DNA of 64,000 nucleotides from Caulobacterales bacterium. GTDB lineage: Bacteria; Pseudomonadota; Alphaproteobacteria; Caulobacterales; Caulobacteraceae. The stretch spans positions 370-64,369 of the forward strand of contig JBBQTP010000001.1 of NCBI GenBank assembly GCA_038213205.1, written 5' to 3'. The position numbers were made by a program, and so were the translations under genes. The first letter of the stretch is position 1, and every line of letters begins with the position of its first letter. The notes under the pieces were generated by a model. The model was not told the DNA's origin, did no database searches, and worked only from the letters and a program-made list of their open reading frames with translations. This document shows, piece after piece, positions 15,170 to 32,164 of the stretch.

Positions 15170-15174
15170 TCCTC

Positions 15175-16532: not shown

Positions 16533-17554
16533 TCCGGGTACTGATCGTCGACGACTCCGCGACCATGCGGAAACTGATCGCCGCGGCGCTGTCCGACTAC
16601 GCGGAGTTCACCGTGGTCGGCGAGGCCGCCGATCCGTTGGAAGCCCGCGAGGCCATCAAGATCTTCAATCCCGACGTCATCACCCTCGACGTCGAAATGC
16701 CGAACATGAACGGCCTCGAGTTCCTCGAGCGGCTGATGCGGCTTCGGCCGATGCCGGTGGTGATGGTCTCGACGCTGACCAGCCGTGGCGCCGAGGCGAC
16801 GCTGGCGGCGCTGGAACTCGGCGCGATCGACTGTGTCTGCAAGCCGACATCCGAGAACCCGCGCACCTTCGACACCCTGCCGGAGAAGGTTCGCGCGGCC
16901 GCCATCGCCCGACCGCGTGGCCCGCAGTGCATCCGCGCTACCGCCGCGGCGCCGGAGGGCGCCTTCGCGCCCAACGGCAAGATCGTAGCGATCGGCTCAT
17001 CCACCGGCGGCGTCGAGGCGTTGCTGTCGATCGTCGGGCGCCTGCCGGCCAACTGTGCGCCGACGGTGATCACCCAGCACATGCCGGGGACCTTCACAAG
17101 GAGCTTCGCCGAGCGCCTGAACCGCGGCTGCGCCGCCGAGGTGAGCGAGGCCCGCGACGGCGATCCACTGATCCCGGGCCATGTTTATCTGGCGCCTGGC
17201 GGGGATAGCCATCTCGAGATCGACGGCTCGGCGACGCTGCGCTGCCGGGTCTCGCCGGGCAGTCCGGTTAGCGGCCACCGGCCCTCCGTGGACGTGCTGT
17301 TCGACTCCGTCGCGCGCACCGCGCGCAGCCGTGCGCTCGGCGTGATCCTCACCGGCATGGGCCGCGACGGGGCCCGCGGGCTGCTGGCGCTGCGCGACGC
17401 CGGCGGCCGCACGCTCGGCCAGGATGAATCGACGTGCGTCGTCTATGGCATGCCGCGCGCTGCCTTCGAGATCGGCGCCGTCGAGCGCCAGCTGCCGCTT
17501 GAGAAGATCGCGTCCGCTATCCGCCAACTGACCAACCGCTCTGGGGAGTCCTGA
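16529..17554 (+). CDS. cheB: chemoreceptor methylesterase/deamidase CheB
   Basis: 341 aa. Receiver ([23 protein letters not shown]) plus esterase (IGSSTGG, HMP, GMGRDG). ATGA overlap with cheR. Confidence 0.9.
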
Positions 17555-17942
17555 TGCCCGTCGCCGCGTCCATTCACTGCCTCATGTCGACGATCAGCAG
17601 ACCATCCGCTCGCTCGTCCGCAGCGGCCTGCAGGAGCTCGGGTTCCGCACCTTCTTCGAAGCCAACGACGGCGAGGAGGGTCTGCGGCAGATGCTCAACA
17701 GGCCGATCCAGCTGGTGATCTCAGACTACAACATGCCCAAGCTGGACGATCTGGGCCTGCTGCGCGCCGTGCGTGCGCACCCGCCGATTCAGAAGACCGC
17801 CTTCATCATGCTGACCGGCCGGGCCGACAAGGACCTAGTCCAGCGGGCCGTGCAGTTCGGGGTCAACAACTATCTCGTCAAGCCGTTCACCGTGGCCACG
17901 CTGCGCGAAAAGATCGAAGCGGTCTTCGGCGCTCTGCAATGA
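17554..17942 (+). pseudogene. cheYII: CheY-like receiver (cheYII position) interrupted by an apparent 1-nt deletion near 17584..17587
   Basis: The ATG at 17554 is coupled to the cheB stop (cTGATG) and reads [16 protein letters not shown]..., stopping at TGA 17716..17718. The receiver sequence HVDDQQTIRSLVRSGLQELGF...QLVISDYNMP...IMLTGR...LVKPF is in the next frame. That frame has no ATG/GTG/TTG between its upstream stop (17529) and the DD motif. The track therefore only finds an 83-aa tail from 17691. Confidence 0.7.
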
Positions 17943-18526
17943 GCCTAGCCGCCGCCGATTTTGAACCGGAGCGAGGCGTGGTCATGGAACCGCGCAAGGT
18001 TCACGTGATCCAGGGGGAGTTCAAGGTCTCCGACGACCCGGACCTGGTGATGACCACGATCCTGGGATCGTGCGTCGCGGCCTGTATGCGCGACCCCGTG
18101 GCCGGCGTTGGCGGCATGAACCACTTCCTGCTGCCCGGCGTCAGCGGCAGCGCCAATCTTCTTGAGGGGGGTCTGCGCTACGGCGTGCAGTCCATGGAGC
18201 TCTTGATGAACGCCCTGCTGCGCCGGGGCGCGCGGCGCGAGCGGCTGGAGGTCAAGCTGTTCGGCGGCGGGCGGCTGATCACCGGCCTGACCGACGTGGG
18301 CTCACAGAACGCGGCGTTCGCCGAGCAGTTCGTCCGCGACGAAGGGCTCGCCCATGCCGGCGGTTCGCTGCGCGGTGATCGCGCCCGGCGCATCCAATAC
18401 TGGCCGGTCAGCGGGCGCGCCCGCCAGGTCTTCCTCGCCGCGGCCGAATCCAAAGTGTTCGCCGCCGAACGGCGCCGGCCCGCCGCGCCGCCGCCGGAAG
18501 ACTCCGGCGCCCTGGAGCTGTTCTAA
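17939..18526 (+). CDS. cheD: chemoreceptor glutamine deamidase CheD
   Basis: 195 aa. VHVIQGEFKVSDDPDLVMTTILGSCVAACMRDPVAGVGGMNHFLLPG. ATGA overlap with the preceding gene. Confidence 0.9.
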   Translation: MSLAAADFEPERGVVMEPRKVHVIQGEFKVSDDPDLVMTTILGSCVAACMRDPVAGVGGMNHFLLPGVSGSANLLEGGLRYGVQSMELLMNALLRRGARRERLEVKLFGGGRLITGLTDVGSQNAAFAEQFVRDEGLAHAGGSLRGDRARRIQYWPVSGRARQVFLAAAESKVFAAERRRPAAPPPEDSGALELF

Positions 18527-18918
18527 TGCCCAATCCTTCCCAGTCGAGCGACGCACCGACTTTTCGCCCGTTCGCCGAGCCGCTGCGGCTGGCGGCCATC
18601 GAACTCGCCGACCTGGCGCGGACCGGCGACCAGCTGCAGCGGGTCATCGCCCGCCTCGCGGCCGGCGCCGGGGCGCTCGACGCGGAGCTGATGGAGGAGG
18701 CCCAGGGCGCAGACCTGCTCAGCCAGCGCCTGGAAGGCATGGCCGCCTTCCTGCGCGCGCTCGCCGACGCGGTTCCGGCCGGCGCGGCCGTCGACGTGCA
18801 CGCCGCGATGATCGACCTGACCCTGGCCGAACAGGCGCGCCGCCTCGCAGGCCCCCCGGCCGCCGTCCCGACGGCCACGGACGAGGCGTCCGGCGACCTG
18901 TTGCTGTTCGGGAGCTGA
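18526..18918 (+). CDS. cheU: chemotaxis-operon protein of unknown function (CheU position in the Caulobacter operon)
   Basis: 130 aa, helical and Ala-rich. Its start overlaps the cheD stop (TAATG). Named by synteny only. Confidence 0.5.
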   Translation: MPNPSQSSDAPTFRPFAEPLRLAAIELADLARTGDQLQRVIARLAAGAGALDAELMEEAQGADLLSQRLEGMAAFLRALADAVPAGAAVDVHAAMIDLTLAEQARRLAGPPAAVPTATDEASGDLLLFGS

Positions 18919-18919
18919 G

Positions 18920-19522
18920 ATGGGCGCCACGCCGTTCAAGGGGCGCGAGCGGGTCAACCTCTCCACCGCCGAGGTGCTGATTGTCTGCGGCGACGCTGAG
19001 GGGCTGGAGATCCTGGCCCAGATGTTCGCCGGCTTCGGCGTGCACACGCCCCGCCGCGCATCGTCCAGCGCCGAAGCGATGGTCGTCGTCGGCGAGCGCG
19101 AGCTGAACCTGGTCGTCGTCGACAGCGCGCTCGCCGATGGCGACGGCTACCCGTTCATCAACTGGCTGCGGCGCTGCGGCTCGCCCAACGCCTGGTCGCC
19201 CGTGGTGCTGGTCACCGGCCACACCACGCCGTCGCAGATCATCAAGGGCCGCAACGCCGGCGCCAGCTTCGTGGTGCGCAAGCCGGTCCCGCCGATGGTG
19301 ATGATGCAGCGCATCGTCTGGCTGCTCAACGATCAGCGCGCTTTCGTCACCTCCGAGGGCTACTGCGGCCCGGACCGCCGGGTTCGCTCGATGGGCCCAC
19401 CCGTCGGCATGAAAGGCCGCCGCCACGACGACCTCTCCGTAGAGGTCGGCGAGGCCACCACCCCCAACCTCGATCAGGGCCAGATCGACGCCCTCTTCCA
19501 GCCCAAGGCGCTCGCCCGATGA
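18920..19522 (+). CDS. cheYIII: CheY-like receiver with degenerate acidic pocket and Arg-rich C-terminal extension (CheYIII / Cle-type)
   Basis: 200 aa. LIVCGDA replaces the LVVDD pocket, while VVVDSA (Asp), LVTGH (Thr) and VRKPV (Lys) are retained. A ~70-aa tail follows, with YCGPDRRVRSMGPPVGMKGRRHDD. Confidence 0.75.
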   Translation: MGATPFKGRERVNLSTAEVLIVCGDAEGLEILAQMFAGFGVHTPRRASSSAEAMVVVGERELNLVVVDSALADGDGYPFINWLRRCGSPNAWSPVVLVTGHTTPSQIIKGRNAGASFVVRKPVPPMVMMQRIVWLLNDQRAFVTSEGYCGPDRRVRSMGPPVGMKGRRHDDLSVEVGEATTPNLDQGQIDALFQPKALAR

Positions 19523-19980
19523 GTCTCCCGCGCGTGTTCAAAGTTGAAAATAAACTGGCCAAGGTTGTCAGCCGGCCCGGCGGCAAGACCATCAAGGAAG
19601 CCCTGCAGTCAGCCGAAACGAACATCGAGTCGGTGCGCGACCAATGCATGACCGCGCTCGAGGAGAAGGCCGGAAACCTGGCTCGGATCGCCGGCGGGGA
19701 TCGCGGCGAGGGCGCGATGGCGACGCTCGACAGGCTCTACGACGTCAGCAACGCGATCTTCGGTGTCGCCGGCGCCTTTGGTCTCGAGGCGCTGGCGGAA
19801 GCAGCCTGCAGCCTCTGCGACGTCATCCACCGCTTCCGCAGCGGGGAATCCGTCAGGTGGTCGGCTGTGGATGTGCACGTGGATGGCATCCGCCTGCTCG
19901 CCGGTGGCCTGACGCGCGGGGCGGACGAGATTCTCGAGGGCCTTCGCAAGGTTCGCGCGCGGTTCGTCCCGGCGACTTGA
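19519..19980 (+). CDS. cheE: chemotaxis-operon protein of unknown function (CheE position)
   Basis: 153 aa. ATGA overlap with the preceding gene. Last gene of the coupled chain. Named by synteny only. Confidence 0.5.
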   Translation: MSLPRVFKVENKLAKVVSRPGGKTIKEALQSAETNIESVRDQCMTALEEKAGNLARIAGGDRGEGAMATLDRLYDVSNAIFGVAGAFGLEALAEAACSLCDVIHRFRSGESVRWSAVDVHVDGIRLLAGGLTRGADEILEGLRKVRARFVPAT

Positions 19981-20049
19981 GAAGCCGAGGCCCCGGCCCG
20001 TTCAGATGACATCATCTGATCGGGAAAGAAGGGTCTGTCTTCAAAGGCT

Positions 20050-20397
20050 CTAGGCGGCGGAGCTCTCGCGACGGGGTTCGGCTTCGTGGGGCAGGGCGTC
20101 GGCGGCGTCGACCAGGGCCCGTTGCAGGGCGAGCGCGATGCGCGCCTCGGCCGGAGCCCGTTGCAGGCGCTCACGCACTTCCTCGACGACGTCGGTCACT
20201 CGCTTGCAGGCTGCGCGCGCGGCGCGCTCGGCCTCTTCTTCCAGCGCCGCATCGGCGGAGGCGCCCAGCAGTGGCGAAAGTGTCGCCAGCGCCTGCAGCG
20301 TGGCCCGGCTGAGCGCCAGGCAAGCCTGCAGGTCCGCGTCGAGGCTGCGCAAGGCGCCGCGCACATCGTCATCGGCCAGGGCCAGGGTCTGGTTCAC
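20050..20397 (-). CDS. hypothetical helical protein, divergent from the MarR gene
   Basis: 115 aa with a GTG start. Third-position GC is high throughout. No recognisable family. Confidence 0.45.
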   Translation of the reverse strand: MNQTLALADDDVRGALRSLDADLQACLALSRATLQALATLSPLLGASADAALEEEAERAARAACKRVTDVVEEVRERLQRAPAEARIALALQRALVDAADALPHEAEPRRESSAA

Positions 20398-20460
20398 GTC
20401 AGTCCTTTCGGAAGCGGCGCCACACGACTTAGCCGCAGACGGTTAATTGAAATTAAAAAT

Positions 20461-20502
20461 GTGCATTTGCACCTAATGCAAATCGACATATACCATTTGC
20501 AC
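20461..20502. promoter_or_regulatory. candidate MarR operator(s): three TTTGCA-containing half-sites (ATTTGCA, TGCAAAT, ATTTGCA), the first two a perfect palindrome
   Basis: GTGCATTTGCACCTAATGCAAATCGACATATACCATTTGCAC. ATTTGCA-N5-TGCAAAT is a perfect inverted repeat (20465..20483), and a third CATTTGCAC lies at 20494..20502. It sits in an AT-rich island between divergent genes. Confidence 0.45.
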
Positions 20503-20539
20503 ATTGTGGAAAAGCGCGGATTCGGCTTGAGTCCCACCG

Positions 20540-21100
20540 ATGGCCAAGCCCCGCATCCCGCCCCGTGACTACTCCGTCGACCCGGACGGGGAGTTCCCAC
20601 TGGGGGCGCCGGAGTATTTCTTCTACCTGCTGTTCCAGGCGGCGAGGCAGCGGGACGGTTTCTTCGACAAGGCGCTCAAGCCGGTGAACCTCAACCTTGC
20701 CCAGTGGCGCTCGTTGGCGATCATCCGCCGGCTCGAGGTCTGCACCATGAGTTCGCTGGCCCGCTACAGCACGGTGGAGCGGACCACGCTCACCCGGGCG
20801 GTGGATCAGCTGGTGGCCCGCGGCGTTGTGTCGCGCTGCACGCCCGATCAGGACCGCCGGCAGGTGAACCTGGCGCTCACCGACCTGGGCGAAGTGACCT
20901 ACGGCAAGGCCGTGGCGATCCTCAAGGAGCGCAATCAGTGGGTGCTCGAGGACATCGACCCCGAGCGTCTGCGCGACGCCACCCGGGTGCTGCAGAAAAG
21001 CCTGCGCAAACTGATCGATGACGACGAGCTGGCCCTCGACCTGATCACCTTCGGACGCACGGTTCCGGGCAGCGGAGGCCAAACCGACCTCCAAGGGTGA
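20540..21100 (+). CDS. MarR-family transcriptional regulator
   Basis: 186 aa. LNLAQWRSLAIIRRLEVCTMSSLARYSTVERTTLTRAVDQLVARGVVSRCTPDQDRRQVNLALTDLG is a winged HTH of MarR type. Confidence 0.85.
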   Translation: MAKPRIPPRDYSVDPDGEFPLGAPEYFFYLLFQAARQRDGFFDKALKPVNLNLAQWRSLAIIRRLEVCTMSSLARYSTVERTTLTRAVDQLVARGVVSRCTPDQDRRQVNLALTDLGEVTYGKAVAILKERNQWVLEDIDPERLRDATRVLQKSLRKLIDDDELALDLITFGRTVPGSGGQTDLQG

Positions 21101-21140
21101 CGTTTCGGAATTCGGTGCAGTGATCGCCCAGCCATAGTGC

Positions 21141-21192
21141 GAATTCCCACGAATTCCCACTTTTAACGTTGAATTATGGGAACTATGGGAAT
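21141..21192. promoter_or_regulatory. array of two direct GAATTCCCAC and two inverted TATGGGAA repeats flanking TTAA-N7-TTAT
   Basis: GAATTCCCAC GAATTCCCAC TTTTAACGTTGAAT TATGGGAAC TATGGGAAT, 30 nt upstream of the oprB start. Confidence 0.45.
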
Positions 21193-21221
21193 GTGGCCCG
21201 GTACTACTCCGGAGCAGCAGA

Positions 21222-22421
21222 ATGCCCAGCTTTCGCCGAATCCAGCTCGCGGTCTTTGCCGCAGCGGCCGCCCTGGCCACGGGCGCCGCCGCCGAACCGC
21301 AGGTGTCTGAGACGCCGGCGGCGCCTACCCCCGCCCTCAGCTATTCGCTGGTCTACACCGCCGACATCACTGGCGTGGTCGCCGGCTCCGGTCCACGCGC
21401 CGGGCGCTACCTCGACAACTTCGACGCCATCGCCGACGTCGATCTGGAGAAGGCCTTCGGCTGGCGCGGCGCGACCGCCCACGCCTATGTGCTGAACAAT
21501 TCGGGCGGGGCGCCAAACGACCTGGCCGGCACCCTGCAGGGCGTCGACAACATCGAGGTGGCCGCCCCACGCCTGCGAATGTTCGAGCTGTGGCTGGAGC
21601 AGGACTTCGGCGGCAAGGCCTCGATCCGCGGCGGGCTCTACAATCTCAACAGCGAGTTCTATTCCAACGAGGCGGCGGGCCAGCTGCTGGCGCCGGCCTT
21701 CGGGATCGGGTCGGAACTGGCCGCCACCGGCCCCAACGGCCCCTCGATCTTCCCGGCGACCTCGCTCGGCCTGCGCGTGAACTTCAATCTCGGCGACGGC
21801 GCCTATGTCCGCGCCGCGGTGCTGAACGCCAAGGCGGGGGTGATGGGTGATCCGCGCGGCGTCGACCTGACGTTCAGCGACGGCGTGCTGGCCATCGCCC
21901 AGGTGGGCGTCGCCGCGCCGATTAAGATGAGCGTCGGGGCCTGGCGCTACAGCCACACCCAGGACGACATCCGCGATGTCGATCCGGCCGGCGCGCCGCA
22001 GCACCGCGTGGCGCAAGGCGTCTACGTCCAGGCCGAGCATCGGGTGTTCGGCGGAGAGGACGGCCGCTCGGGCACGGCCTTCGTGCGCCTCGGCGCCTCG
22101 GACGGTCAGACCACGCCCTTCCACGGCGGCTGGCAGGCCGGCCTGCGCGTCGACAAGCCCTTCGCCGGGCGGCCCGACAGCGTGCTCTCCATAGGCGCTG
22201 AGCAGGGCCTGTTGGACCGCAAGTTCCGCGCCAACCTGCGCGATCAGTTCACCGACCCCAGTCGCGCCGAGACCGGCGTCGAAGTCACCTACTCCGACAA
22301 AGTCGGGTCTCGCGTGACCCTGCAGCCCGACCTGCAGTGGATCCATCATGCCCGCGGCGATCGCGGCATGTCCGACCGCTGGGTCGCGGGCCTGCGGCTG
22401 CGGATCGAGTTGACCAGATGA
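21222..22421 (+). CDS. oprB: carbohydrate-selective porin, OprB family
   Basis: 399 aa with a signal peptide. LVYTADITGVVAG...YLDNFDAIADVDLEKAFGWRGAT...FELWLEQDFGGKASIRGGLYNLNSEF is typical of OprB. Confidence 0.8.
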   Translation: MPSFRRIQLAVFAAAAALATGAAAEPQVSETPAAPTPALSYSLVYTADITGVVAGSGPRAGRYLDNFDAIADVDLEKAFGWRGATAHAYVLNNSGGAPNDLAGTLQGVDNIEVAAPRLRMFELWLEQDFGGKASIRGGLYNLNSEFYSNEAAGQLLAPAFGIGSELAATGPNGPSIFPATSLGLRVNFNLGDGAYVRAAVLNAKAGVMGDPRGVDLTFSDGVLAIAQVGVAAPIKMSVGAWRYSHTQDDIRDVDPAGAPQHRVAQGVYVQAEHRVFGGEDGRSGTAFVRLGASDGQTTPFHGGWQAGLRVDKPFAGRPDSVLSIGAEQGLLDRKFRANLRDQFTDPSRAETGVEVTYSDKVGSRVTLQPDLQWIHHARGDRGMSDRWVAGLRLRIELTR

Positions 22422-24703
22422 TCCCAGGCTGGCGATCGCCCGAGGCGCAGCGAATCCTCGATCCGTTCCAGCGGACGCTGGCTTGGCGCGCGGGCAGCAT
22501 GTGGACCCGCGGCCTGACGGCGACCCTGGTGGCGCTCCTCGCCTGGTTCACGACCGGCAGTTCGCTGGCCGGCCTGTGGCTCGCCGCGGGACTCGTCGCC
22601 GTTGCGATCGACGCTACAGTCAGCCGCCACTTTCTCGGCAAAACCAAGACCCGGGCCGCTGCGGTCCTGACCACGATGGCCTTCACGGTATCGGCGGTGA
22701 CGTTCTCGCTGATCGCGCCCTTGCTGCTCAGCACACCCTCCTCCATCGGCCTGGCGGAGGCGGCGCTGCTGCTCTGCGCCGTCAGCCTCAACAACGCGCT
22801 GATGTCCTGCGGGTCGCGGACCGCCACGGTCGCCCTCGTAGGACCGGCTTCGACAATCCTGATCCTGAGCCCGCTCCTGGCGCGCCTGTTTGGCCTCGCC
22901 ATGCCGGTCGCACATGTCGTGACCCTGGCCTTGGCGGGGGTCATCTTCTCCGTCTTCATTGTTCGTCTGGCCGGTGTGATCAACGCCGAGGGAGTCGCGC
23001 TCGGCGATGCCCTGGACGAGCTCGCCCGCCAGACCGCCACCGCCGAGACGGCCGGCCAGGCGGCGCTGGAGAGTAAGCACCGCCTGCGGCTGATTTTCGA
23101 CCACAGCCCAACCGCGCGGACCTGCTTCAACGCCTCCGCGCTCTACGAACGCTTGCGCGTTGCAAAAGAAGATCCGCCGATCGGCCTGGGCGATGTGCTG
23201 CGCGCGCAGATCACCAGCGTGGCCGATATATTCGCCCACCTCACGGTTCTGGAAACCAATCAGGTCGCCGACGAATTGAGCGGCGACAATATCCGCCGGG
23301 TCCACCTCACCGAGTCTTTTGTCGAGGGGTTCGCGACAGCGCTGAACGCGATCAGCGATGAGGGCGTGCTGCCGGCGTTTCCCGCCGAGCTGATCCGGGG
23401 CGACGGCTCGATCGTCGACATCGAGGTCCATCTGCGCATGTCTTCCTGTGACGGCGAGCCGTGGAGCCTGTGCATGTCGACCTACGTCGATGTCACGACG
23501 GCGCGCCAGGCCGCTCGCGAACAGAAGGCGGCGCTGGAGGCCGCCGAGGTCGCCAATCGGGCCAAGAGCGAATTCCTCGCTGTCATCAGCCACGAGATCC
23601 GCACCCCGCTGAACGGGGTGCTGGGCATGGCGCAGGCGATGGCGCTGAGCCCGCTACCCCGCGTGCAGCGTGAACGCCTGCGGGTGCTGGGCGAGAGCGG
23701 CGAGGCGCTGCTGGCGATCGTCGACGACCTGTTGGATCTGGCGCGGATCGAGGCCGGCGGCCTGCAGCTGGTCAGCGCTGACTTCGACCTGCCGGCGGTG
23801 CTGGAGAGCGTCCGCTCTGCCTATTCCGCCGAGGCCGCCCGCAAGGGTCTCACTTTCAGCCTGGCGATCGATCCGCGCGCCGCCGGTCGCTACCGCGGCG
23901 ATGCAGGGCGCTTGCGCCAGATCATCAGCGCCCTGGTCTCCAACGCGCTGAAGTTCACCCATCGGGGCGAGGTGTCCGTCAGCCTGTTGAGCACGCCGCG
24001 CGGCGTTCGGTGCGAAGTGCGTGACAGCGGCATCGGCATCGACGCCGATCGCATCCCCACGCTGTTCGAGAAATTCGTCCAGGCCGATTCTTCGATGACC
24101 CGCCGCTACGGCGGCGCCGGCCTGGGCCTGGCGCTCTGCCAGAAACTCTCCAAGGCCATGGGCGGCGAGATTCTGGTCGAGAGCGCGCCGGGCGCCGGCA
24201 GCACCTTTGCGCTGACGCTGCCCCTGCCGGTCTGCGGCGTCACGGCGGCCGATGCGCGCGAAGAGATGGCCGCGGCGGCGGAGCGGCAGGTACGTGTTTT
24301 GGCCGCCGAGGATAATCCCGTGAATCAGATGGTGCTGCGCGCGCTGCTGGGTCAGATCGGCCTGGAGCCGACCATTGTCGCCAACGGCATCGAGGCGCTG
24401 GCCGCCTGGGAAGCCGGCGACTGGGACCTGATCCTGATGGACGTCCAGATGCCGCTGATGGATGGCCTCAGCGCGACTCAGGCCATCCGCGCGCGTGAGG
24501 CGGAGCTGGGCCGCACCGCGGTGCCGATCATCGCGGTAACCGCCAACGCCATGATCCACCAGGTGGCGAGCTACCGCGCCGCGGGGATGACGGGAGTGAT
24601 CTCCAAACCTATCGACGTCGAGGCGCTGTTCTCGGCGATGATCGCGGCCATCGCGCGCGGCGAGCCGCCGGAAAGCTCGGAGCTGTCTGTCGCCACCGGT
24701 TGA
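22418..24703 (+). CDS. membrane-bound hybrid sensor histidine kinase / receiver
   Basis: Start MIPGWRSPEAQ (ATG 22418), overlapping the oprB stop as ATGA. It has ~6 TM helices, a HisKA domain (FLAVISHEIRTPLNGVLGM), a HATPase domain ([22 protein letters not shown]) and a receiver (VLAAEDNPVNQ, LILMDVQMPLMDG, SKP). Confidence 0.9.
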   Translation: MIPGWRSPEAQRILDPFQRTLAWRAGSMWTRGLTATLVALLAWFTTGSSLAGLWLAAGLVAVAIDATVSRHFLGKTKTRAAAVLTTMAFTVSAVTFSLIAPLLLSTPSSIGLAEAALLLCAVSLNNALMSCGSRTATVALVGPASTILILSPLLARLFGLAMPVAHVVTLALAGVIFSVFIVRLAGVINAEGVALGDALDELARQTATAETAGQAALESKHRLRLIFDHSPTARTCFNASALYERLRVAKEDPPIGLGDVLRAQITSVADIFAHLTVLETNQVADELSGDNIRRVHLTESFVEGFATALNAISDEGVLPAFPAELIRGDGSIVDIEVHLRMSSCDGEPWSLCMSTYVDVTTARQAAREQKAALEAAEVANRAKSEFLAVISHEIRTPLNGVLGMAQAMALSPLPRVQRERLRVLGESGEALLAIVDDLLDLARIEAGGLQLVSADFDLPAVLESVRSAYSAEAARKGLTFSLAIDPRAAGRYRGDAGRLRQIISALVSNALKFTHRGEVSVSLLSTPRGVRCEVRDSGIGIDADRIPTLFEKFVQADSSMTRRYGGAGLGLALCQKLSKAMGGEILVESAPGAGSTFALTLPLPVCGVTAADAREEMAAAAERQVRVLAAEDNPVNQMVLRALLGQIGLEPTIVANGIEALAAWEAGDWDLILMDVQMPLMDGLSATQAIRAREAELGRTAVPIIAVTANAMIHQVASYRAAGMTGVISKPIDVEALFSAMIAAIARGEPPESSELSVATG

Positions 24704-26646
24704 TCGCCGAACAGGTCGGCCAGCTTCCGCGCCAGGTCGCCGCGGCGATAGGGTTTGCCGAGGAACGCCGCCTCGCCCTCCAGACGCAGCGCCTGGATGG
24801 TCGGCTCGTCGGTGTGGCCCGAGGTGAACAGGATCGGCAGTTGCGGATAGAGTTGCCGCGCCTGGTCGGCCAGTTGGCGCCCGTTCAGGCCGCCGGGCAT
24901 GACGATGTCGGTCATCAGCAGGTCGATGTCGCTCGTCGCATGCAGCCGGCGCAATGCGTCGTGGCCGTTGCGGTGAGCGGTGACCCGGCAGCCCAGCGAG
25001 ATCAACTGACGCTGCACCTGGTCGCGCAGCAGGTCGTCGTCCTCCACCAGCAGCACATGACGCGGCTGTGTCAGCAGCTGCGTGGGCGCGGCGGCCCGCG
25101 CCGTGGTTTCAGCACGCGCGGTCAGCGGCAAGTAGATGCTCATCCTTGAGCCGCGGCGGGGTTCGCTATCGATCTCCAGACGCCCGCCCGACTGGCCGGC
25201 GAAGCCGTGCACCATCGACAGGCCAAGGCCCGAACCCTGGCCCTCGGGCTTGGTGGTGAAGAAGGGCTCCAGCGCGCGGGCGCGGGTCTGGGCCGACATG
25301 CCTTCGCCGGTGTCGGCGACGCTCAGAACGACGAAGGCGTCATCGACGCTGTCGCGCGCGGCGCGCAGCGTCAGACGCCCGCCGCCCGGCATGGCGTCGC
25401 GCGCGTTGATCGCAAGGTTGAGCATTGCCGAAGTCAACTGGGTGGGATCGGCCAGGCAGCGCAGGTCAGGCTCGGGTGTCTCCAACACGATCTCGATATC
25501 GCTATTGATCGTGCGGCCCAGGATCGGCGCGAGGCCGGCGAGGAAGCTGGCACAGTCAACCGCCTGGGGCGCGAGCGGTTGAGTGCGCGCCGAGGCCAAC
25601 AGCCGGCTCACCAGCTCGGCGCCGCGCTCGGCGGCGTCCAGCCCAAGGTTCGCCACCGACTGCAGGTCAGGCCGGTCGGCCAGGGCATCGACCAGGGTCT
25701 CGTTCGACCCGATCACCACGGTCAGCAGGTTGTTGAAGTCGTGCGCGATGCCGCCGGTCAGCCGGCCGATCGCCTCCAATTTTTGCGCCTGGCGCAGCTT
25801 TTCTTCCGCCGCCATGTGCTCGCGCATGTCGCGCGCGATGCCGATGACGCTGTCCTGCGACCCCGAGCGCACCGCCGACCACATCAGCGGGACGTGGCTG
25901 CCGTCCTTGTGGATGTAGCGGTTGAGGAAGTTCTTGGTCGGCAGGCCGGCGAAGATGCTGGCCGCTGCAGCGCGGGTCGCGGCCTGGTCCTCGGGGTGAA
26001 CGAAGTCGGCGTAGCTGCGCCCGATCAGTTCCTGCGGCCGGTAGCCCCAGACCAGTTCGGCGTGGCGGTTTACGTGTTTGAACATGCCGTTGCCGTCGAA
26101 CACGCAGATCGCGTCGTGCGAACTGTCGAACATCGCCTGGCCCTCCTCGAGCGTGGCCTTCAGCCGCTCACGGCTGGCGCGCAGGGCGTCGTTGGCGAGC
26201 TTCTCGTTGGTCACTTCGTGGCCCTGGCAGAACACGCCGTAGACCAGGCCGCCGGCTTCGCGCAGGGGCTGCAGCACGAAGTCGGCGAAGGCTTCCTCGT
26301 CGGGGCTTCCGGGATAGCGCGTAACGGCCAGCTTGGCGTTGCGGAGCACCTTGGGCTGGCCGCTGGCATAGACCTCATCCAGCAGCGCGCCGAAACCGCG
26401 CGAATAGCCGCGGCGAAGGCCGACACGGGCGGGCTTGCCGACGATGCTCTCGTCCAGGCCCGACAACTTCAGATAGGCCGGGTTGGCCATTTGCACGACG
26501 TGGTCCGCGCCGAAGAACACCACCATGCAGCCGGGCGCCTGGTCGAACAGTTCGCGGATGCGGCGCACCTCCTCGGCCAGCTGTCGCGAGGTGCGGCCTG
26601 GCGTCGCGGCGGCAGGGGTGGAGACGGGGGGAAGTGGCGGAATCAC
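24571..26646 (-). CDS. soluble PAS-PAS hybrid histidine kinase / receiver (CckA-like H-box)
   Basis: 691 aa with a GTG start and no TM. It has two PAS modules, the H-box LTGGIAHDFNNLLTVVIG, N/G1/F/G2 boxes (LNLAINARDAM, DTGEGM, EPFFTTK, GSGLGLS) and a receiver (LLVEDDD, LLMTDIVMPG, GKPY). Its 3' end overlaps the convergent kinase gene by 133 nt. Confidence 0.9.
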   Translation of the reverse strand: MIPPLPPVSTPAAATPGRTSRQLAEEVRRIRELFDQAPGCMVVFFGADHVVQMANPAYLKLSGLDESIVGKPARVGLRRGYSRGFGALLDEVYASGQPKVLRNAKLAVTRYPGSPDEEAFADFVLQPLREAGGLVYGVFCQGHEVTNEKLANDALRASRERLKATLEEGQAMFDSSHDAICVFDGNGMFKHVNRHAELVWGYRPQELIGRSYADFVHPEDQAATRAAAASIFAGLPTKNFLNRYIHKDGSHVPLMWSAVRSGSQDSVIGIARDMREHMAAEEKLRQAQKLEAIGRLTGGIAHDFNNLLTVVIGSNETLVDALADRPDLQSVANLGLDAAERGAELVSRLLASARTQPLAPQAVDCASFLAGLAPILGRTINSDIEIVLETPEPDLRCLADPTQLTSAMLNLAINARDAMPGGGRLTLRAARDSVDDAFVVLSVADTGEGMSAQTRARALEPFFTTKPEGQGSGLGLSMVHGFAGQSGGRLEIDSEPRRGSRMSIYLPLTARAETTARAAAPTQLLTQPRHVLLVEDDDLLRDQVQRQLISLGCRVTAHRNGHDALRRLHATSDIDLLMTDIVMPGGLNGRQLADQARQLYPQLPILFTSGHTDEPTIQALRLEGEAAFLGKPYRRGDLARKLADLFGDQPVATDSSELSGGSPRAMAAIIAENSASTSIGLEITPVIPAAR

Positions 26647-26726
26647 AGGTGGCCTCGCGCATCGGTGGACTTGATTTCCGGGGGCGTTGGGCGGCTGATC
26701 GAGGCGGATCGGATCTTGGGGGGCAG

Positions 26727-27776
26727 ATGTCCCAGTTGGGACGCAGCGCCGGCTTGACCGGCTTTCTCGAACTCGCGCGCGAAGCGGGCGCCGATCCCTA
26801 CGCGCTCGCCAGGGCCGCGCGTGTGCCGCGCGAGGCGCTCACCGATCCGGATATGCGCGTCGGCTCGGCGTCGATGTCGCGGTTGATTGAAATGGCGGCG
26901 ACGCGGCCTGGCCTTGCAGACATTGGCCTGTGCATGGTCGAGAAGCGCCGCCTTTCGACCATGGGCGCCATGGGTCTCGCGATCCGCGAACAGCCGACCC
27001 TGCGCAAAGCGCTGGAACTGATCCATCAGTATGCCTGGCTGCAGAACGAAGCGCTGTCCGTCGGCTTGGAGGAAATCGAAGATGTCGCCCTGCTTCGCAT
27101 CGGCATGCCGGCCTGGCGCGGCCGGCAGGGTAGTGAGCTGACCACCGGCATCGTTTTTCGGGTCATCCAGGCAGTTGCGGGCCACGGCTGGCGGCCGCTT
27201 GAGGTCCGCTTCATGCACGCCGCACCGGCCAATCTCGACGCGCACCGCCGGCTGTTCGGAAAGATCCCGCTGTTTGATCAGGATTTCGTCGGCATGGTGC
27301 TCAGCGGCGCCGACCTGGACCGGCCGATCGGCGCCAACGACCCGGAGATGGCCAAGATGATATCGGGCTATATCGCCCATATCGCTCAGGGCCGCGGCCG
27401 TCCCGGCCTGGTCGACCAGGTGCGGCAGATGATCCTGTCCTTGCTGCCGGCGGGCGGCTGCACGGTGGATCGGGTGGCCCAGCGGATGGCCATGGACCGG
27501 CGGACCCTGCACCGCCGGCTTGCGGCCGAAGACACCTCCTTCACGGAGTTGTTGAACGCGACGCGCGTCGACCTGGCCGTTTCGCTGCTGACCCATAGCG
27601 AGCGCCCGTTGCAGAGCGTGGCCGACATGCTGGGCTTCGCCAGCCTCAGCGCCTTCGCCCATTGGTTTCGGCGCAACTTCGAGTGTACCGCCAGCGCCTA
27701 TCGCGGGACCCGAAGCGCGCCGGCCGCTCACGCCGCGGCCTTGATCGACGTCTCGTCGGGATCGCGCATCACGTAG
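26727..27776 (+). CDS. AraC-family transcriptional regulator (arabinose-binding-domain-2 type)
   Basis: Start [24 protein letters not shown]. The C-terminus has two HTH motifs: [19 protein letters not shown]...[22 protein letters not shown]. Confidence 0.85.
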
Positions 27777-28429
27777 CCGCCCCCCCATACCGTTTCGATG
27801 TGCTGCTTGCCGCCCGAGGCCTTGGTGAGCTTCTGGCGCAGCTTGCAGATGAACACGTCGATGATCTTGGCGCCGGGCTCGTCCATGCCGCCGTAGAGGT
27901 TGGTCAGGAACACGTCCTTGCAGAGCGTCTTGCCGCGGCGAAGCGCCAGCAGCTCGAGCGTCTGATATTCCTTGCCGGTCAGGTGAACCCGCTCGCCGCT
28001 TACATGCACGATCTTGGCGTCCAGGTTCAGGCTGACGTCGCCGATGGTGATGGTGGAATCGGCGTGACCGGCCGAGCGGCGGATCACCGCGCGCAGCCGT
28101 GCGACCAGTTCGTCCTTGTGGCAGGGCTTGACCATGTAGTCGTCGGCGCCGGCGGCCAGAGCGGCCACCTTGCCGGTGACGTCGGCGGCGCCCGACAGGA
28201 TCAGCACCGGCGTCTTGATCTTGGCGCGGCGCAGCGAGCGCAGCACCTCCATGCCGCTCATGTCCTCCAGGCCGAGGTCCAGCAACACCGCGTCATACTC
28301 ATACGACTTGGCGAGGCCGTCGCCGTCTTCGCCAAGGTCGGTCGTCTCGACCTTGAAGCCCGCGGTGTTGAGCATCATCTCGAGGCTGCGGGCGGTGGTG
28401 CGGTCGTCTTCGATCAGCAGAATGCGCAT
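27728..28429 (-). CDS. OmpR-family response regulator, CtrA-like (probable CtrA paralogue)
   Basis: 233 aa. [110 protein letters not shown], and it ends ...IKAAA. GGAGA RBS. It overlaps the AraC 3' end by 49 nt. Confidence 0.85.
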
Positions 28430-28514
28430 CTTCAGGTCTCCGGAAACTTGGGCAGGCGTGCGAGCGGCCGCGCGCGTCGCCGCGCGTGATCGGGGTGAGG
28501 GTTCGGCGTCGGGC

Positions 28515-29297
28515 CTAGCGGGCGTGAGCCAGGCTGGTCTGGGGTTCGAAATCCAAAGCGTCGGCGGCGGGTGGCCGGTCGAGGACCACGCGCGCGGCGG
28601 TGATCAGCGAGGACATCCGGAAGGGCTTGGCCAGCACCTCGTCGGCCCCCAGCTCGCTGGCCCATTCGAGGAAATTGGAACTGCGCCCATATTGGCCACC
28701 GCCGGAAATGGCGATGACCTTGGTGTCTGGCGTTGAGCGCCGGGCTTCCAGGATGGCGCCGATGCCTTCCATCTCCGGCATGACGATGTCGGTCACCATC
28801 AGGTCGGGCTTCAGCCGCTGCAGCATCTGGACGCCCATGCGACCGTTGCGGGCGCAGAACGTCTGGTAGCCCTCGCGGTTGAAGGCGGCGGCCAGCAGGG
28901 TTAGCAAGCCAGGATCGTCTTCGACCAGCAGCACGCGCAGGCCGTTCCCGTTGGCCGGGCGCGGCAGGGTCAGAGCCCCTTCGCCCGAGACCGGCTCGGC
29001 CTGGACCAGGTCGGCCTGAACCAGGTCGGCGGCCAGGCCCACCGCGCGGTCGGCGGCCAGCGCCCCGATGCGGGCGAGCTCGGCGTGCGTCGGGCTGTCT
29101 TTGAGGTTATCGGCCAGGGATTCACAGACACCGATAATGACGGCGAGCAGATCCTTGAGGTCGCGGGCCGGAGTCGTCTGCGGGCAGGCGTCAACGGCGG
29201 CCGGATCGAGGGCGTAGTGGGTCTTTGAAATTGGGAGATCGCTAAAACTTTGATGCATTTTTGGCATGGTTTCGCATGAGTTTTCGTTTGCGACCAC
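28515..29297 (-). CDS. His-less DHp-like domain fused to a receiver domain (no ATPase domain)
   Basis: 260 aa; the start is uncertain (GTG 29297, ATG 29267 or 29258). [50 protein letters not shown] aligns with the neighbouring kinase's AHDFNNLLTVVIGSNETLVDALADRPDLQSVANLGLDAAERGAELVSRLL, with His replaced by Arg. An intact receiver follows ([31 protein letters not shown]). Confidence 0.8.
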
Positions 29298-29427
29298 CCG
29301 GTGGAAGAGCTATGGAGCTTGCGGTCCGCGGCTCAGCCCCGAGGGGGTGATTCGTCGTTTCGCCTATAGGGTTAACGGCGCTTGAGCTTGTTTCTGAGGG
29401 ACAGAAACTTGCTTCTTCGGGACAATC

Positions 29428-29435
29428 TTAACCAT
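29428..29435. promoter_or_regulatory. exact TTAACCAT octamer (CtrA half-site type) in the promoter region of the DHp-REC / CtrA-like operon
   Basis: caatcTTAACCATccgac, ~130 nt upstream of the 28515..29297 gene in a lower-GC intergenic stretch. Nearby are GTTAAC (29371) and the inverted repeat GTTTCTG-N5-CAGAAAC (29390..29408). Confidence 0.3.
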
Positions 29436-29806
29436 CCGACCAGACTGGCGATTATTTACGGTGTCAATGTTCGCCGAGCAGGTTCAGCGAGCCTCGATCG
29501 CGGCCTGAGGAGCGGCGCTGGACAGCCGGACATAGGCAGCCTCGATCGCGGCCCTCAGGACTGGATCGGTGGCCAAGTCGGCTGGAAAGGCTGCGTGTAG
29601 AGCCAGGACCGCGCTCAAACGGCGTCGGGCCAGCAGGGGCGCGATGTCTTGGCGCATCCGGGTCTCGATGAGCCCGCCAGCCGCGGATCGGCCGCTCGCT
29701 GGGGCAAGCCAGACCACTCGGCCGGCATCGCGGCGTTTCTGGCCAACTGGGCCTCCGCTCAAATGCGCGGCGCGATCGTACCTGTAGATGGCTGCTGGCT
29801 GGCCCG

Positions 29807-31381
29807 CTAGGCGCGGCCGAGGATCGGCGGTAGCCGTTTCGCCGACATTGGGTCTGCGGCCTCGTAGGCGGCGGCGAGCTTCAGGCAGGCCATCTCCTGG
29901 TGCACCGGGGCGATGATCTGAAAGCCCATGGGCAGGCCGGTGGGGCCCAGGCCCGCAGGGACCGCAAGCGCCGGGCAGCCGGCCATGGTGATCAGGCAGA
30001 CCGCTTTCATCCACTCGTGGTAGGTCGCCATCTTGCGGCCGGCTATTTCGGCGGGCCAATGGAGCTCGGCATCGAACGGGAAGAGCTGGGCGGTGGGTAC
30101 GATCAGGTAGTCGTAGTGGCCGAAGAACTTGCCGACCGCCTGGCTCCATTCGGTGCGGACGGTGGAGTCCGCGGTGATGTCGAAGGCCGATTGCCTGGCG
30201 CCCAGCTCGACCTCCCAGACGGCTTCCGGCTTCAGCAAGGCACGGCGCGCGGGGTCTCTGTAAAAGTCCCGGATCGCGCCGCCCTGCTGCCAGCCGCGCA
30301 GGCGCATGAAGGATTGCCAGACCTTCTCCAACGGATAGTCCGGCATCGCTTCCTCGACGACGCAGCCCAGGCTCTCGAAGGTCCTCAGGGCCTTCCGACA
30401 GGTTTCCAGCACGCCGGGTTCGTAGGGCGCGTAGCCCTTGAAGTCGCCGGCCCAGGCAATGCGTTTGCCCTTCATGCTTGCCGCCAAGGCCCCACGGAAC
30501 TGCGCGCCGCCGCTCTCCATCGACAGCGGGGCGCGCGGGTCGTAGCCGGCCTGGATCGAGAGCAACAGAGCGAGATCGGCGACGTTGCGCGCCATCGGTC
30601 CGGTGACGCCCATCGAGGGGAGCCAGTCCTCCTTGCCGTGCACCGGCACGCGGCCGGCGCTGGTGCGGAAGCCCATGACATTGTTCCAGCCCGCCGGGTT
30701 GCGCAGGCTGCCGCCGTAGTCGCTGCCGTCGGCCAGGGGCAGCATGCGGAGCGCCAGCGACACCGCTGCCCCGCCGCTGCTGCCGCCGGCCGATTTCGTC
30801 GGGTCATAGGCGTTGCGGGTGAGGCCATAGACCGGGTTGTAGGTATGCGAGCCGATGCCGAACTCCGGGGTGTTGGTCTTGCCGATGAAGATGACGCCCG
30901 CGCCACGCAAGCGCTCGACCATGATGCTGTCGAAGGTGGGCACGAAGTCGCGGTAGATCGGCGAGCCCTGGGTGGAGCGGATGCCCTTCACCGGCTGCAG
31001 GTCCTTGCACGCGTGCGGCATGCCGTGCAGCAGGCCGACAGCCTCGCCGCGGGCCAACGTCGCGTCGCGGTCCTTCGCCTGGGCGATCAAGCCGGCGCGG
31101 TCCTGCAGGGCGACGATGGCGTTGAACGCCGGGTTCACCGCGTCGATGTGGTCGAGATAGGCGGTTATCACCTCGACGCTGGAGATCTTCCGCGTGCGGA
31201 TCGCCGTGGCCAGCGGGCCGGCATCCATCATCACGATGTCAGAAGGGTGCGGAGCCGCCGCGCTGGTCTTAGCCATGGAGGTTACCGCCGCTCCCACGAT
31301 TGCACCTGAGGCCGAGCGCAGGACGGATCGGCGATCCAGCCCGCGGGACACCGCCTGCGCATCATCGTCGCCCATGTCCAT
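29807..31381 (-). CDS. amidase-signature family amidase with Tat-type signal peptide
   Basis: 524 aa. DRRSVLRSASGAIVGAAVTSMAKTSAAA is a twin-Arg leader. AS motif GGSSGGAAVSLA, plus KDL..VKG..T.GS. Confidence 0.85.
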   Translation of the reverse strand: MDMGDDDAQAVSRGLDRRSVLRSASGAIVGAAVTSMAKTSAAAPHPSDIVMMDAGPLATAIRTRKISSVEVITAYLDHIDAVNPAFNAIVALQDRAGLIAQAKDRDATLARGEAVGLLHGMPHACKDLQPVKGIRSTQGSPIYRDFVPTFDSIMVERLRGAGVIFIGKTNTPEFGIGSHTYNPVYGLTRNAYDPTKSAGGSSGGAAVSLALRMLPLADGSDYGGSLRNPAGWNNVMGFRTSAGRVPVHGKEDWLPSMGVTGPMARNVADLALLLSIQAGYDPRAPLSMESGGAQFRGALAASMKGKRIAWAGDFKGYAPYEPGVLETCRKALRTFESLGCVVEEAMPDYPLEKVWQSFMRLRGWQQGGAIRDFYRDPARRALLKPEAVWEVELGARQSAFDITADSTVRTEWSQAVGKFFGHYDYLIVPTAQLFPFDAELHWPAEIAGRKMATYHEWMKAVCLITMAGCPALAVPAGLGPTGLPMGFQIIAPVHQEMACLKLAAAYEAADPMSAKRLPPILGRA

Positions 31382-31444
31382 CTCCCCACCCAGTGGTCAC
31401 GCTACACCGTGATGCGCGCCGAGCGAACGGCTTGTCGCGCGGGA

Positions 31445-32164
31445 CTAGAACGGCTTGGCGCAGGCGACGCCAGCCGCCACGCCGATCTCGCCCATCGGCG
31501 CCACATCGCCGCCCGCGCGGGCGCGGCAGCCGTTGTGCGGTCGACGCTCCAGAATGGCCTGCGGGTCCTTGCCGAAGGCGCCGCTCAGGTCGAGGTTCAG
31601 CCGGCCCGCCAGGCGGCCGAGGCCGGCGACCTGGCGCCTGGCCAGTCGTTGCTCGCAAACCTCCTGCTGTTCGCGCGACAGATGCATGAGCGCGCTCGGC
31701 ACGCAGCCCACGAGACCGCGCAGAGTGGCCTGGACGTCGCCCGCCGCGCGGCCCGGCAGGCGCGACGGCGCGACCTCGTCGGGCGAGGGTGTAGGGCCGA
31801 CGGCGATCTCCCGCCGCAGCGTCGCGGTTTTCGCCTCCACGCCCCGACGACGGCTCAGTTTGTCGCGCGGCGGCGGCTTGGCGGCGGGGAGACGGGCCAG
31901 CACAACGTTCATCACCGGAGGCGGCGCGTAGGATGGCGCGGAGCCGAGGTGCGAGACCAGGGCGAGGAAGAAGCCTGCGTGGGCGAGCACGGACACCGCG
32001 ATGGCGGCCTGCCGCCAAGCGGCACTGCCTCCGCGTCTGCTCGCCGATGCCGCCACAGGTCCCGCCCCTGGCTGCTGCAAAGCTCGACTGTCGTGCGCGG
32101 GCGGTGGCGGAATGAAGACCGGCGTAGGGCCGCCAATCGACTTTTCAGGGCGATGGGGCCACAC
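31445..32164 (-). CDS. hypothetical membrane-anchored Pro-rich protein
   Basis: High GC3 in this frame. One TM (AAIAVSVLAHAGFFLALVSHL) is followed by a Pro-rich linker (TonB-like N-terminal organisation). The start is uncertain. Confidence 0.4.
   Translation of the reverse strand: MWPHRPEKSIGGPTPVFIPPPPAHDSRALQQPGAGPVAASASRRGGSAAWRQAAIAVSVLAHAGFFLALVSHLGSAPSYAPPPVMNVVLARLPAAKPPPRDKLSRRRGVEAKTATLRREIAVGPTPSPDEVAPSRLPGRAAGDVQATLRGLVGCVPSALMHLSREQQEVCEQRLARRQVAGLGRLAGRLNLDLSGAFGKDPQAILERRPHNGCRARAGGDVAPMGEIGVAAGVACAKPF

Follow-up and report, generated by a model that had tools for sequence, protein, structure and literature searches.

The window analysed here, a 64,000-nucleotide stretch of contig JBBQTP010000001.1 from a Caulobacterales bacterium, carries a compact cluster of signalling genes that includes a paralog of the response regulator CtrA and a small protein, referred to below as DHp-REC, in which an N-terminal helical domain is joined to a receiver. 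The names of homologous proteins point to Phenylobacterium, Caulobacterales, as the kin of the organism. With moderate confidence, we interpret the cluster as an accessory CtrA-type module that exists beside the housekeeping CckA-ChpT-CtrA pathway and is restricted to a Phenylobacterium-like lineage of Caulobacterales. Gene calls in the window rest on the GC content of third codon positions and on Pfam. They confirm the four signalling proteins that a sequence-only reading of the window had proposed: a membrane hybrid histidine kinase on the plus strand (22418..24703; HisKA, HATPase_c and Response_reg in Pfam; the longest open reading frame begins at 22337) and, all three on the minus strand, a soluble PAS-PAS hybrid histidine kinase (24571..26646; PAS, HisKA, HATPase_c and Response_reg), the CtrA paralog, an OmpR-family response regulator identified by the NCBIfam CtrA model, tree and alignment (27728..28429), and the 247-aa DHp-REC protein (28515..29258; start taken from the identical database protein P0001). 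That inventory stood for the four genes and omitted a fifth, an AraC-family regulator gene on the plus strand (26634..27776; Arabinose_bd E=6e-38, HTH_18 E=2e-17; likely start at the ATG at 26727). It lies between the PAS kinase and the CtrA paralog, divergent from the former and convergent with the latter (49-bp overlap), and its product is QhpR-like in NCBIfam, at 186 bits against a cut-off of 250. The DHp-REC gene is located upstream of the CtrA paralog with a gap of 85 bp, and the two are probably part of one operon. A promoter or operator region with a layout conserved across loci precedes it (29368..29435, minus strand).

The CtrA-like protein is a member of the CtrA family in the broad sense: it combines an OmpR-type receiver with a winged helix, keeps D51, the conserved Lys and the recognition helix, and has the C-terminus ...KAAA. 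On the NCBIfam CtrA equivalog model NF045991 it scores 332.4 bits, under the cut-off of 350, and it is approximately 65% identical to a Caulobacter CtrA reference, against mostly 87-96% for the canonical sequences of this group. The tree resolves three CtrA clades, a tight canonical one, clade A and clade B; the window protein falls into clade A, a separate long-branch clade apart from the canonical CtrA of Caulobacterales. A canonical CtrA (P0243), which shares a 90% cluster with a sequence 92% identical to Caulobacter CtrA, is encoded beside fliI and fliJ on SSMZ01000235 and DATGEX010000036. Both of these metagenome-assembled genomes (MAGs) also hold, on separate contigs, a cluster of the window type (loci L004 and L005) and a clade-B paralog (L038 and L023), and each has three CtrA-family genes: canonical, clade A and clade B. 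In locus L042, one contig carries a canonical ctrA and, at a distance of 3 kb, a paralog. The CtrA-like gene of the window is a paralog, an extra copy. That it might be the only ctrA of the organism, a possibility the sequence-only reading had raised against itself, was considered and rejected on its placement in a clade of its own, the identity values and the canonical ctrA found on other contigs of two cluster-bearing MAGs.

All three CtrA clades retain the phospho-Asp, the recognition helix (ending in (K/Q)KL) and the terminal Ala-Ala, and the tails preceding the latter vary. In Caulobacter CtrA the Ala-Ala is the ClpXP tag. Relative to canonical CtrA, clade A has fixed the changes S10R and Q14R in helix alpha1, and E186G. 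Helix alpha1 is the partner-recognition surface, and S10 and Q14 of CtrA are systematically replaced in both paralog clades. Since this surface differs systematically from that of CtrA, the paralog probably takes a different phosphate input. The recognition helix itself is adjoined in clade A by E186G and L187A/G, and T167K lies close to T168/T170, two residues by which the choice of promoters is tuned in CtrA (PMC6847485). Position 170 is also variable in its own right: it is Cys in the window and His in many clade-A members, and it is Thr both in the members that accompany a His-bearing DHp-REC (the His clade, see below) and in CtrA, where it is important for promoter choice. Directly after the conserved receiver Lys, at residue 103, the window, L001 and L012 read KPCHKDE, and every other member of the CtrA family reads KPFHKDE.

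A scan of species-representative genomes yielded 23 loci with a full-length DHp-REC ortholog, all from Phenylobacterium, Caulobacterales or alphaproteobacterial genomes; cultured carriers of the cluster include Phenylobacterium sp. CCH9-H3 and CCH12-B4. Co-conservation of the signalling genes in related genomes, on which the sequence-only reading had staked its proposal, is borne out by these loci. The CtrA-like gene comes next after DHp-REC in 23/23, although it is truncated in L002, L016 and, by the contig end, in L022. The AraC gene is present in 20, and among the other three L022 stops at the contig end. Orthologs of the PAS kinase occur in 15 loci, including an N-terminal fragment at the contig end of L013; the membrane kinase occurs in 14, with a fragment in L008. 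A gene for a MarR-family regulator (20540..21100 in the window, plus strand; Pfam MarR E=1.5e-12) marks the outer edge of the conserved block, and is found at that edge in 14 of the 23 loci. The recurrent order of genes is DHp-REC, CtrA-like, AraC, PAS kinase, membrane kinase, in some loci OprB, and MarR. The block is conserved as far as MarR, and the flank on the DHp-REC side is not; the amidase gene found there in the window (29807-31381, minus strand) is kept only in L001, the closest relative. The block consists of a conserved core (DHp-REC, the CtrA paralog and AraC) and a variable kinase periphery. The DHp-REC family is a narrow one, as fewer than ten 50%-identity clusters match the protein over its full length among the 1.84 billion representative proteins searched.

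Upstream of DHp-REC, the window has a CtrA-type 8-mer TTAACCCT at 29368-29375. A pair of TGTCCC-N7-CAA direct repeats with a spacing of 21 bp occupies 29388-29424, and the opposite strand carries a perfect copy of TTAACCAT at 29428-29435. We take TTAACCAT to be the known CtrA 8-mer of the Caulobacter CtrA regulon. The double direct repeat occurs once in the window against 0.01 occurrences expected by chance. Its combination with the following elements, first GTTAACCAT and then CGAATCA, is kept in 22/23 loci, with the consensus tGTCCCg.A.Aa.CAA...tCTGTCCC..a..A.CAAgCt..gccG.CGTTAACCaT.TAGG. No full CtrA box (TTAA-N7-TTAA) is present in the window, and occurrences of TTAACCAT with at most one mismatch are not enriched window-wide (6 found against 6.6 expected); what speaks for the CtrA-type site of the promoter is therefore its conservation across loci, not its abundance. 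The simplest reading of the layout is control by a CtrA-family protein, which would operate through autoregulation or through canonical CtrA. It is a guess that the linked AraC regulator could recognise direct repeats of this 21-bp spacing.

The clade-B promoters have a related appearance. TTAACCAT is found in 17/17 of the clade-B loci (L023-L040), approximately 30-45 bp upstream of a receiver-only gene. Most of these sites form a near-palindrome (A/G)TGGTTAA-N5-TTAACCAT, preceded by CGAATCAGC and an inverted repeat CTACGGG...CCCGTAG, with a spacing of 9 bp from start to start, against 11 bp in the classical TTAA-N7-TTAA box.

The AlphaFold model of DHp-REC displays two N-terminal helices (residues 30-51 and 56-87, with a predicted local distance difference test score, pLDDT, above 90), a disordered or flexible linker, and a receiver at residues 108-227. 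The profile of the N-terminal domain aligns across both helices with the DHp of the adjacent PAS kinase (hhalign probability 98.5%, E=3e-15, 62 columns) and is unrelated to the DHp of the membrane kinase (probability 0.8%). Together with the model and with HisKA matches in homologs, this identifies the N-terminal hairpin as a true DHp. Its likeness does not extend to ChpT: PF10090 (HPTransfase) has no match in DHp-REC or 27 homologs, and the N-terminal profile finds only chance-level matches in the PDB, with no ChpT chain at E<=10 and no CckA. With the AlphaFold model as query, a Foldseek comparison with PDB structures matched receiver domains only, Spo0F best, and is uninformative on the hairpin.

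The residue that would carry phosphate in this DHp varies within the family. Among 120 homologs, the H-box reads HDLxNLL in 44, with two more having Ser or Thr at position +4; RDLx(D/E)LL in 57, among them the window protein with Arg and with Asp at +4; and (E/D)DLYNLL in 6. Further substitutions are seen in L021 and L022 (Gln; Arg..Ser), and distant members are likewise degenerate, with P0380 keeping HEFNNLL. The alignment contains no other conserved His in the N-terminal domain, and the rest of helix 1 is nearly invariant. Asn at +4 is needed for the phosphatase activity of HisKA domains. As judged from these sequences, both the H-box His and its +4 Asn have been lost several times in the family. 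In the receiver, DD, D157, S185 and K211 do not vary across the family. In the clade of the window the DHp cannot carry phosphate, and the receiver is still phosphorylatable. The sequence-only reading had already noticed the Arg in place of the phospho-His. With Arg at the His position and Asp in place of the +4 Asn, the window protein cannot stand in for ChpT, and a role as a ChpT-like phosphotransferase is plausible only in the HDLxNLL sister clade. We also considered, and set aside, an Arg that reaches over to a phosphorylated Asp; a simpler reading of why Arg co-varies with Asp or Glu at +4 is an i/i+4 pair on one face of the helix.

The DHp-REC receiver has CpdR as its best NCBIfam model, at 62 bits against a cut-off of 180. 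It shares one segment with that model, and differs from CpdR in the beta4-alpha4 segment AISGGGxYGRSxNFLxWA.

The soluble PAS kinase has the H-box GGIAHDFNNLLT, and its best solved relative is the DHp-CA core of Caulobacter CckA (5IDJ, E=1e-37), which reads GGVAHDFNNLLT. It attains 253 and 219 bits on the NCBIfam CckA equivalog models, for which the cut-off is 1000, and a search for a hydrophobic segment that could form an N-terminal membrane anchor found none. Its receiver carries the motif LFTSGH, with His where CckA has Tyr; the FxSGY motif marks CckA-type intermediary receivers (PMC9981736). With the H-box AHDFNNLLT, a DHp-CA core nearest CckA and a C-terminal receiver of the FxSGY type, the protein belongs to the class of CckA-like kinases; it is soluble and not an ortholog of CckA. 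The CckA-type H-box invoked by the sequence-only reading is not specific to CckA and is also found in kinases of Chlorobi, Desulfobulbaceae and other phyla.

Orthologs of the PAS kinase share the N-terminus MIPP(L/E)PP and differ in domain content. The full PAS-PAS-DHp-CA-REC arrangement is seen in 10 loci; the protein of L005 is PAS-DHp-CA, those of L008 and L009 are DHp-CA alone, that of L019 is DHp-CA-REC, and in L013 the N-terminal PAS part is visible up to the end of the contig. The receiver-less kinases (L005, L008 and L009) all accompany a DHp-REC of the Arg clade, where they make up 3/9, against 0/5 in the His clade for proteins with a visible C-terminus, counts too small for a statistical test. 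The pattern fits an ancestral His-Asp-His-Asp relay that ran through the DHp-REC His and was shortened to direct transfer once this His was lost.

The genes for the two kinases converge and overlap at their 3' ends by 133 bp (24571-24703), in addition to the overlap of AraC and the CtrA paralog at 27728-27776. Most related loci likewise show overlapping kinase genes, by 57-117 bp. L015 is without such an overlap, and its PAS-kinase alignment stops near residue 646; the 45-residue tail of the window protein may therefore result from reading through into the strand antisense to the membrane kinase gene.

The membrane kinase has approximately five to six hydrophobic segments within residues 73-222, the H-box SHEIRTPLNG, and a receiver that reads IIAVTAN and is without the FxSGY motif. 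Its best partial matches in NCBIfam are TorS, BarA and LuxQ, all far under the cut-off. The stop codon of a preceding OprB-family porin gene (21222..22421, plus strand; Pfam OprB E=6e-60) overlaps its ATG at 22418, and OprB adjoins the membrane kinase also in L001, L014, L015, L017 and L021. Kinase and porin genes are probably transcribed together. The kinase probably passes its signal to an Hpt protein whose gene lies elsewhere; its receiver is of the Hpt-partnered kind. With this probable co-transcription, the unrelated DHp and the type of receiver, the membrane kinase shows no specific tie to the CtrA-like gene; its membership in a CtrA-paralog module is doubtful, and is the weakest part of our account.

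The sequence-only reading had stressed the lack of an Hpt-domain protein, and for the proteins covered this is upheld. Neither PF01627 (Hpt) nor PF10090 (ChpT-type) matched any cluster protein above threshold, nor any of 20 additional small open reading frames of the window, 7 of which have no Pfam match of any kind; the scan left out three small open reading frames at 55392-57282 that have the support of third-position GC content, and the Hpt domain of CheA.

A link between a CckA-type hybrid kinase, a receiver and a CtrA paralog, as the sequence-only reading suggested, is supported by the arrangement of genes in L042. There, in a different Caulobacterales MAG (6959-11188), an operon-like series of three genes comes after canonical ctrA, within 3 kb of it. 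Head to tail, the three encode a 552-aa hybrid kinase of the CckA class (H-box GGVAHDFNNLL), a 155-aa receiver-only protein, whose gene overlaps that of the kinase by 4 bp, and a 233-aa CtrA paralog with a basal position in clade B. Clades A and B are related to a similar degree in both partners: receivers are mostly 54-61% identical (range 49-61%) and regulators 53-57%. On account of these similar identities, the receiver and regulator genes appear to have been duplicated as a unit.

The clade-B module itself, a second CtrA-paralog module of the same genomes (L023, 9950-13511, with equivalents in L024-L040), comprises a 147-aa receiver-only gene and, approximately 40 bp downstream, a 239-aa CtrA paralog. 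A short soluble DHp-CA kinase of 274 aa with the H-box THDFNNLL is encoded on the opposite strand, 1.5-3 kb away, and FixJ- and FixL-like genes are found beside the module in L023. Beyond CtrA, L041-L080 contain receivers with the signature MPE[MK]EGI / ISGGG beside, or fused to, kinases of the AHDFNN(I/L)L type from Chlorobi, Desulfobulbaceae, Neomarinimicrobiota and others. The pairing of this receiver subtype with this class of kinases is older and wider than the CtrA context.

In the mechanism we propose, the core of the module would be a two-gene operon of DHp-REC and the ctrA paralog, to which the AraC-family regulator gene is linked. The likeliest phosphodonor would be the adjacent soluble PAS-PAS hybrid kinase, CckA-like in its DHp-CA core and receiver. 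The CtrA paralog probably binds CtrA-type sites, among them the conserved TTAACCAT-like site in the promoter of its operon, and ClpXP probably degrades it as it does CtrA. DHp-REC may have originated when a CpdR-like receiver protein acquired a DHp of the subfamily to which the PAS kinase belongs. In the sister clade with HDLxNLL, it may work as a fused ChpT-plus-CpdR, with phosphate passing from the receiver of the hybrid kinase to the DHp His, and from there to the CtrA paralog and to the receiver of DHp-REC itself. In the clade of the window, the DHp would be a pseudo-domain, able only to dimerise or dock, and might hold the phosphorylatable receiver at the kinase or the regulator as a competitor, a phosphate sink or a modulator of proteolysis. 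Phosphate would then reach the CtrA paralog straight from the kinase His or by way of the housekeeping ChpT. The idea of a second, rewired copy of the CckA-ChpT-CtrA logic, put forward by the sequence-only reading, is retained here to the extent that a CtrA-style module is present as an addition, is co-conserved and has a CckA-like kinase; it is abandoned as far as DHp-REC was to replace ChpT in this organism.

Several observations weigh against this interpretation. Orthologs of the PAS kinase were not found in L012, L020, L021 and L037, and neither kinase was found in L012 or L020, so that the cognate kinase may be encoded elsewhere. A single family-level lineage supplies all the loci, and part of the synteny may reflect simple inheritance. 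The promoter 8-mer TTAACCCT is one mismatch away from the CtrA 8-mer, and Pfam HisKA matches 13/27 DHp-REC homologs, the window protein not being among them. The Caulobacter CtrA reference is validated indirectly, through 92-96% matches to database proteins named CtrA by NCBI, one of the clusters bearing the name 'CtrA [Phenylobacterium sp.]'. The evidence for three CtrA paralogs comes from MAGs, which are possibly chimeric, and a separate canonical ctrA in the window organism is extrapolated from related MAGs. Each functional step, be it phosphotransfer, DNA binding or proteolysis, is deduced from sequence and synteny.

The alternative that survives best sees in the neighbourhood a legacy of inherited synteny in place of a pathway. 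The input to the DHp-REC/CtrA-like pair would then come from the housekeeping CckA-ChpT relay or from an unlinked kinase, and the hybrid kinases would serve unrelated partners, the membrane kinase acting with the porin, MarR and a distant Hpt protein, and the PAS kinase with the AraC regulon. We consider this possible but rather unlikely. The persistence of the core pair and AraC in L012 and L020 without both kinases, and the lack of the PAS kinase in L021 and L037, agree with it, as does the restriction of all loci to a single lineage; yet the flank on the DHp-REC side is unconserved while the block up to MarR is conserved, and the succession of hybrid kinase, receiver and CtrA paralog in L042 is operon-like. 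With regard to the membrane kinase the alternative is well served by the overlap of its start with the OprB stop and by a DHp unrelated to that of DHp-REC. For the PAS kinase it is opposed by the specific kinship of its DHp with that of DHp-REC, and by a kinase of the same H-box class near the clade-B modules. CpdR, the nearest NCBIfam model to the DHp-REC receiver, is a substrate of ChpT, which would suit a supply from the housekeeping pathway; the replacement of S10 and Q14 in both paralog clades is instead what would be expected of regulators insulated from ChpT.

A second alternative, which we judge to be improbable as the main explanation, assigns DHp-REC chiefly to proteolysis: as a CpdR-like regulator, it would in one of its phosphorylation states prime ClpXP for the CtrA paralog, with the pseudo-DHp tethering the dimer to the paralog or the kinase. 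The terminal Ala-Ala, kept in three CtrA clades in spite of varied tails, is consistent with this, as are the pairing of a receiver gene with the CtrA paralog in all three types of module and the apparent joint duplication of receiver and regulator. The affinity of the receiver to CpdR cuts both ways, as CpdR is its best NCBIfam match and contributes a shared segment, but the score of 62 bits falls short of the cut-off of 180 and the segment AISGGGxYGRSxNFLxWA is unlike its CpdR counterpart. The proteolytic role is compatible with the accessory module that we favour, and may be one of its branches. The version of the sequence-only reading, in which the window DHp-REC is the missing ChpT analogue between the receivers of the hybrid kinases and the CtrA paralog, is very unlikely and is refuted by sequence for the clade of the window: a true DHp homolog at the N-terminus, the DHp-derived nature of ChpT itself, the HDLxNLL retained by approximately 46/120 homologs, the receiver kept by the PAS kinase in all His-clade loci that have an ortholog, and the lack of an Hpt in the cluster would all suit it, but Arg replaces His and Asp or Glu replaces the +4 Asn throughout this clade, the domain has no other conserved His, Pfam HPTransfase and ChpT chains of the PDB (at E<=10) give no match, and receiver-only proteins hold the same position in clade B and L042, which implies that such modules do not need the DHp.

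Compared with the canonical CckA-ChpT-CtrA pathway, the cluster is alike in having a PAS hybrid kinase with a DHp-CA core nearest CckA, a CtrA-family regulator with an identical recognition helix and terminal Ala-Ala, a companion receiver nearest CpdR, and a CtrA-type site in its own promoter. It differs in that the kinase is soluble and far under the cut-offs for CckA orthologs, the regulator belongs to a separate paralog clade, approximately 65% identical and with a changed alpha1 surface, and there is no ChpT-like gene, the receiver bearing instead an N-terminal DHp whose His is lost in this lineage. The cluster also adds a linked AraC regulator and a second, membrane-bound hybrid kinase. 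For comparison, the appearance of a complete relay with clustered genes is shown by L083 (3001-5635), from another lineage, where a ctrA of the canonical type (88% identical to Caulobacter CtrA) stands beside cheR, a receiver-only gene and an HPTransfase (ChpT) gene.

DHp-REC resembles ChpT and Spo0B as a DHp-type hairpin without a working kinase function in a His-Asp pathway, and its sister clade keeps a phosphorylatable His; unlike them, it has no CA-like domain, carries a fused receiver instead, lacks a sequence match to ChpT and, in the clade of the window, has Arg for His. The pseudokinases DivL (Tyr for His) and PsmA of Streptomyces (PMC12963549) are similar in the variable residue at the position of the lost H-box His, the disappearance of the D/E-x-x-T/N phosphatase motif and the maintenance of the helical scaffold. 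By analogy, this likeness suggests a binding or scaffolding role for DHp-REC, although DivL and PsmA keep CA or CA-like and sensor domains, and DHp-REC consists only of a DHp and a fully intact receiver. With the receiver-only hubs MrrA, SdrG and CpdR (PMC9981736), it shares a receiver of the stand-alone type encoded beside kinases and a glycine-rich beta4-alpha4 segment in the place of the FATGUY motif; it differs in reading AISGGGxYG and not PFxFATGY, and in its fused N-terminal DHp. A search of the searchable literature on CtrA paralogs, a second ctrA, ctrA of Phenylobacterium, and DHp-receiver proteins without CA found no description of the module, and none of CtrA paralog modules in general or of the DHp-REC family. 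It is apparently an undescribed, real and lineage-restricted variant of the CtrA phosphorelay, with a putative route of phosphate.

For the alphaproteobacterial cell cycle, CtrA serves as the model of a master regulator, and it is usually regarded as a hub present in single copy. Paralogs that share its DNA-reading helix and degradation tag, and that have their own kinases and a changed partner surface, would allow the insulation of inputs to be tested against their mixing into one regulon. The series of residues at the DHp-REC His position (His/Asn, Glu/Asn, Arg/Asp and others) could show a phosphotransfer domain decaying into a scaffold, with kinases simplifying in step or not. As a tentative extension, which strikes us as conceivable rather than probable, bacteria of the Phenylobacterium type would possess two extra CtrA pathways, each with its own CckA-class kinase, a CpdR-like receiver, and a regulator with the DNA sites and degradation tag of CtrA. 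DHp-REC would be a ChpT/CpdR fusion on its way to a pseudo-phosphotransferase, its His changed to Arg, Glu, Asp or Gln in independent lineages and the partner kinase shedding a receiver of no further use. Were this so, environmental kinases could write directly onto the cell-cycle regulon. All the parts belong to well-known domain families, and no new kind of chemistry is involved.

Some further features were observed in the window. Between the amidase gene and the DHp-REC promoter there is a possible open reading frame of 57 codons on the minus strand (29484-29657, MRQDIAPLLARRRLS...); the intergenic gap is approximately 510 bp in the window against approximately 290 bp in the closest relative, L001, and the frame is therefore probably not conserved. 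Positions 20000-32000 have no match to any RNA family in Rfam. A chemotaxis operon with the Caulobacter gene order fills 10348-19980, immediately upstream of MarR, the boundary gene of the cluster. It begins with a long open reading frame (10348-12312) that by its position encodes a methyl-accepting chemotaxis protein, followed by a STAS protein, CheY and a second long frame (13004-15169), which is CheA according to the sequence-only reading alone. The rest of the operon consists of CheW, the region 15636-17554 (CheR and CheB by position), CheD, a 130-aa open reading frame, a 200-aa receiver protein and a 153-aa open reading frame. A gene for a CusF-like copper-binding protein (1309-1656, Pfam CusF_Ec) opens the region 1309-7548, where it is followed by large open reading frames on the same strand that resemble an efflux system, the Pfam assignment pertaining to CusF only.

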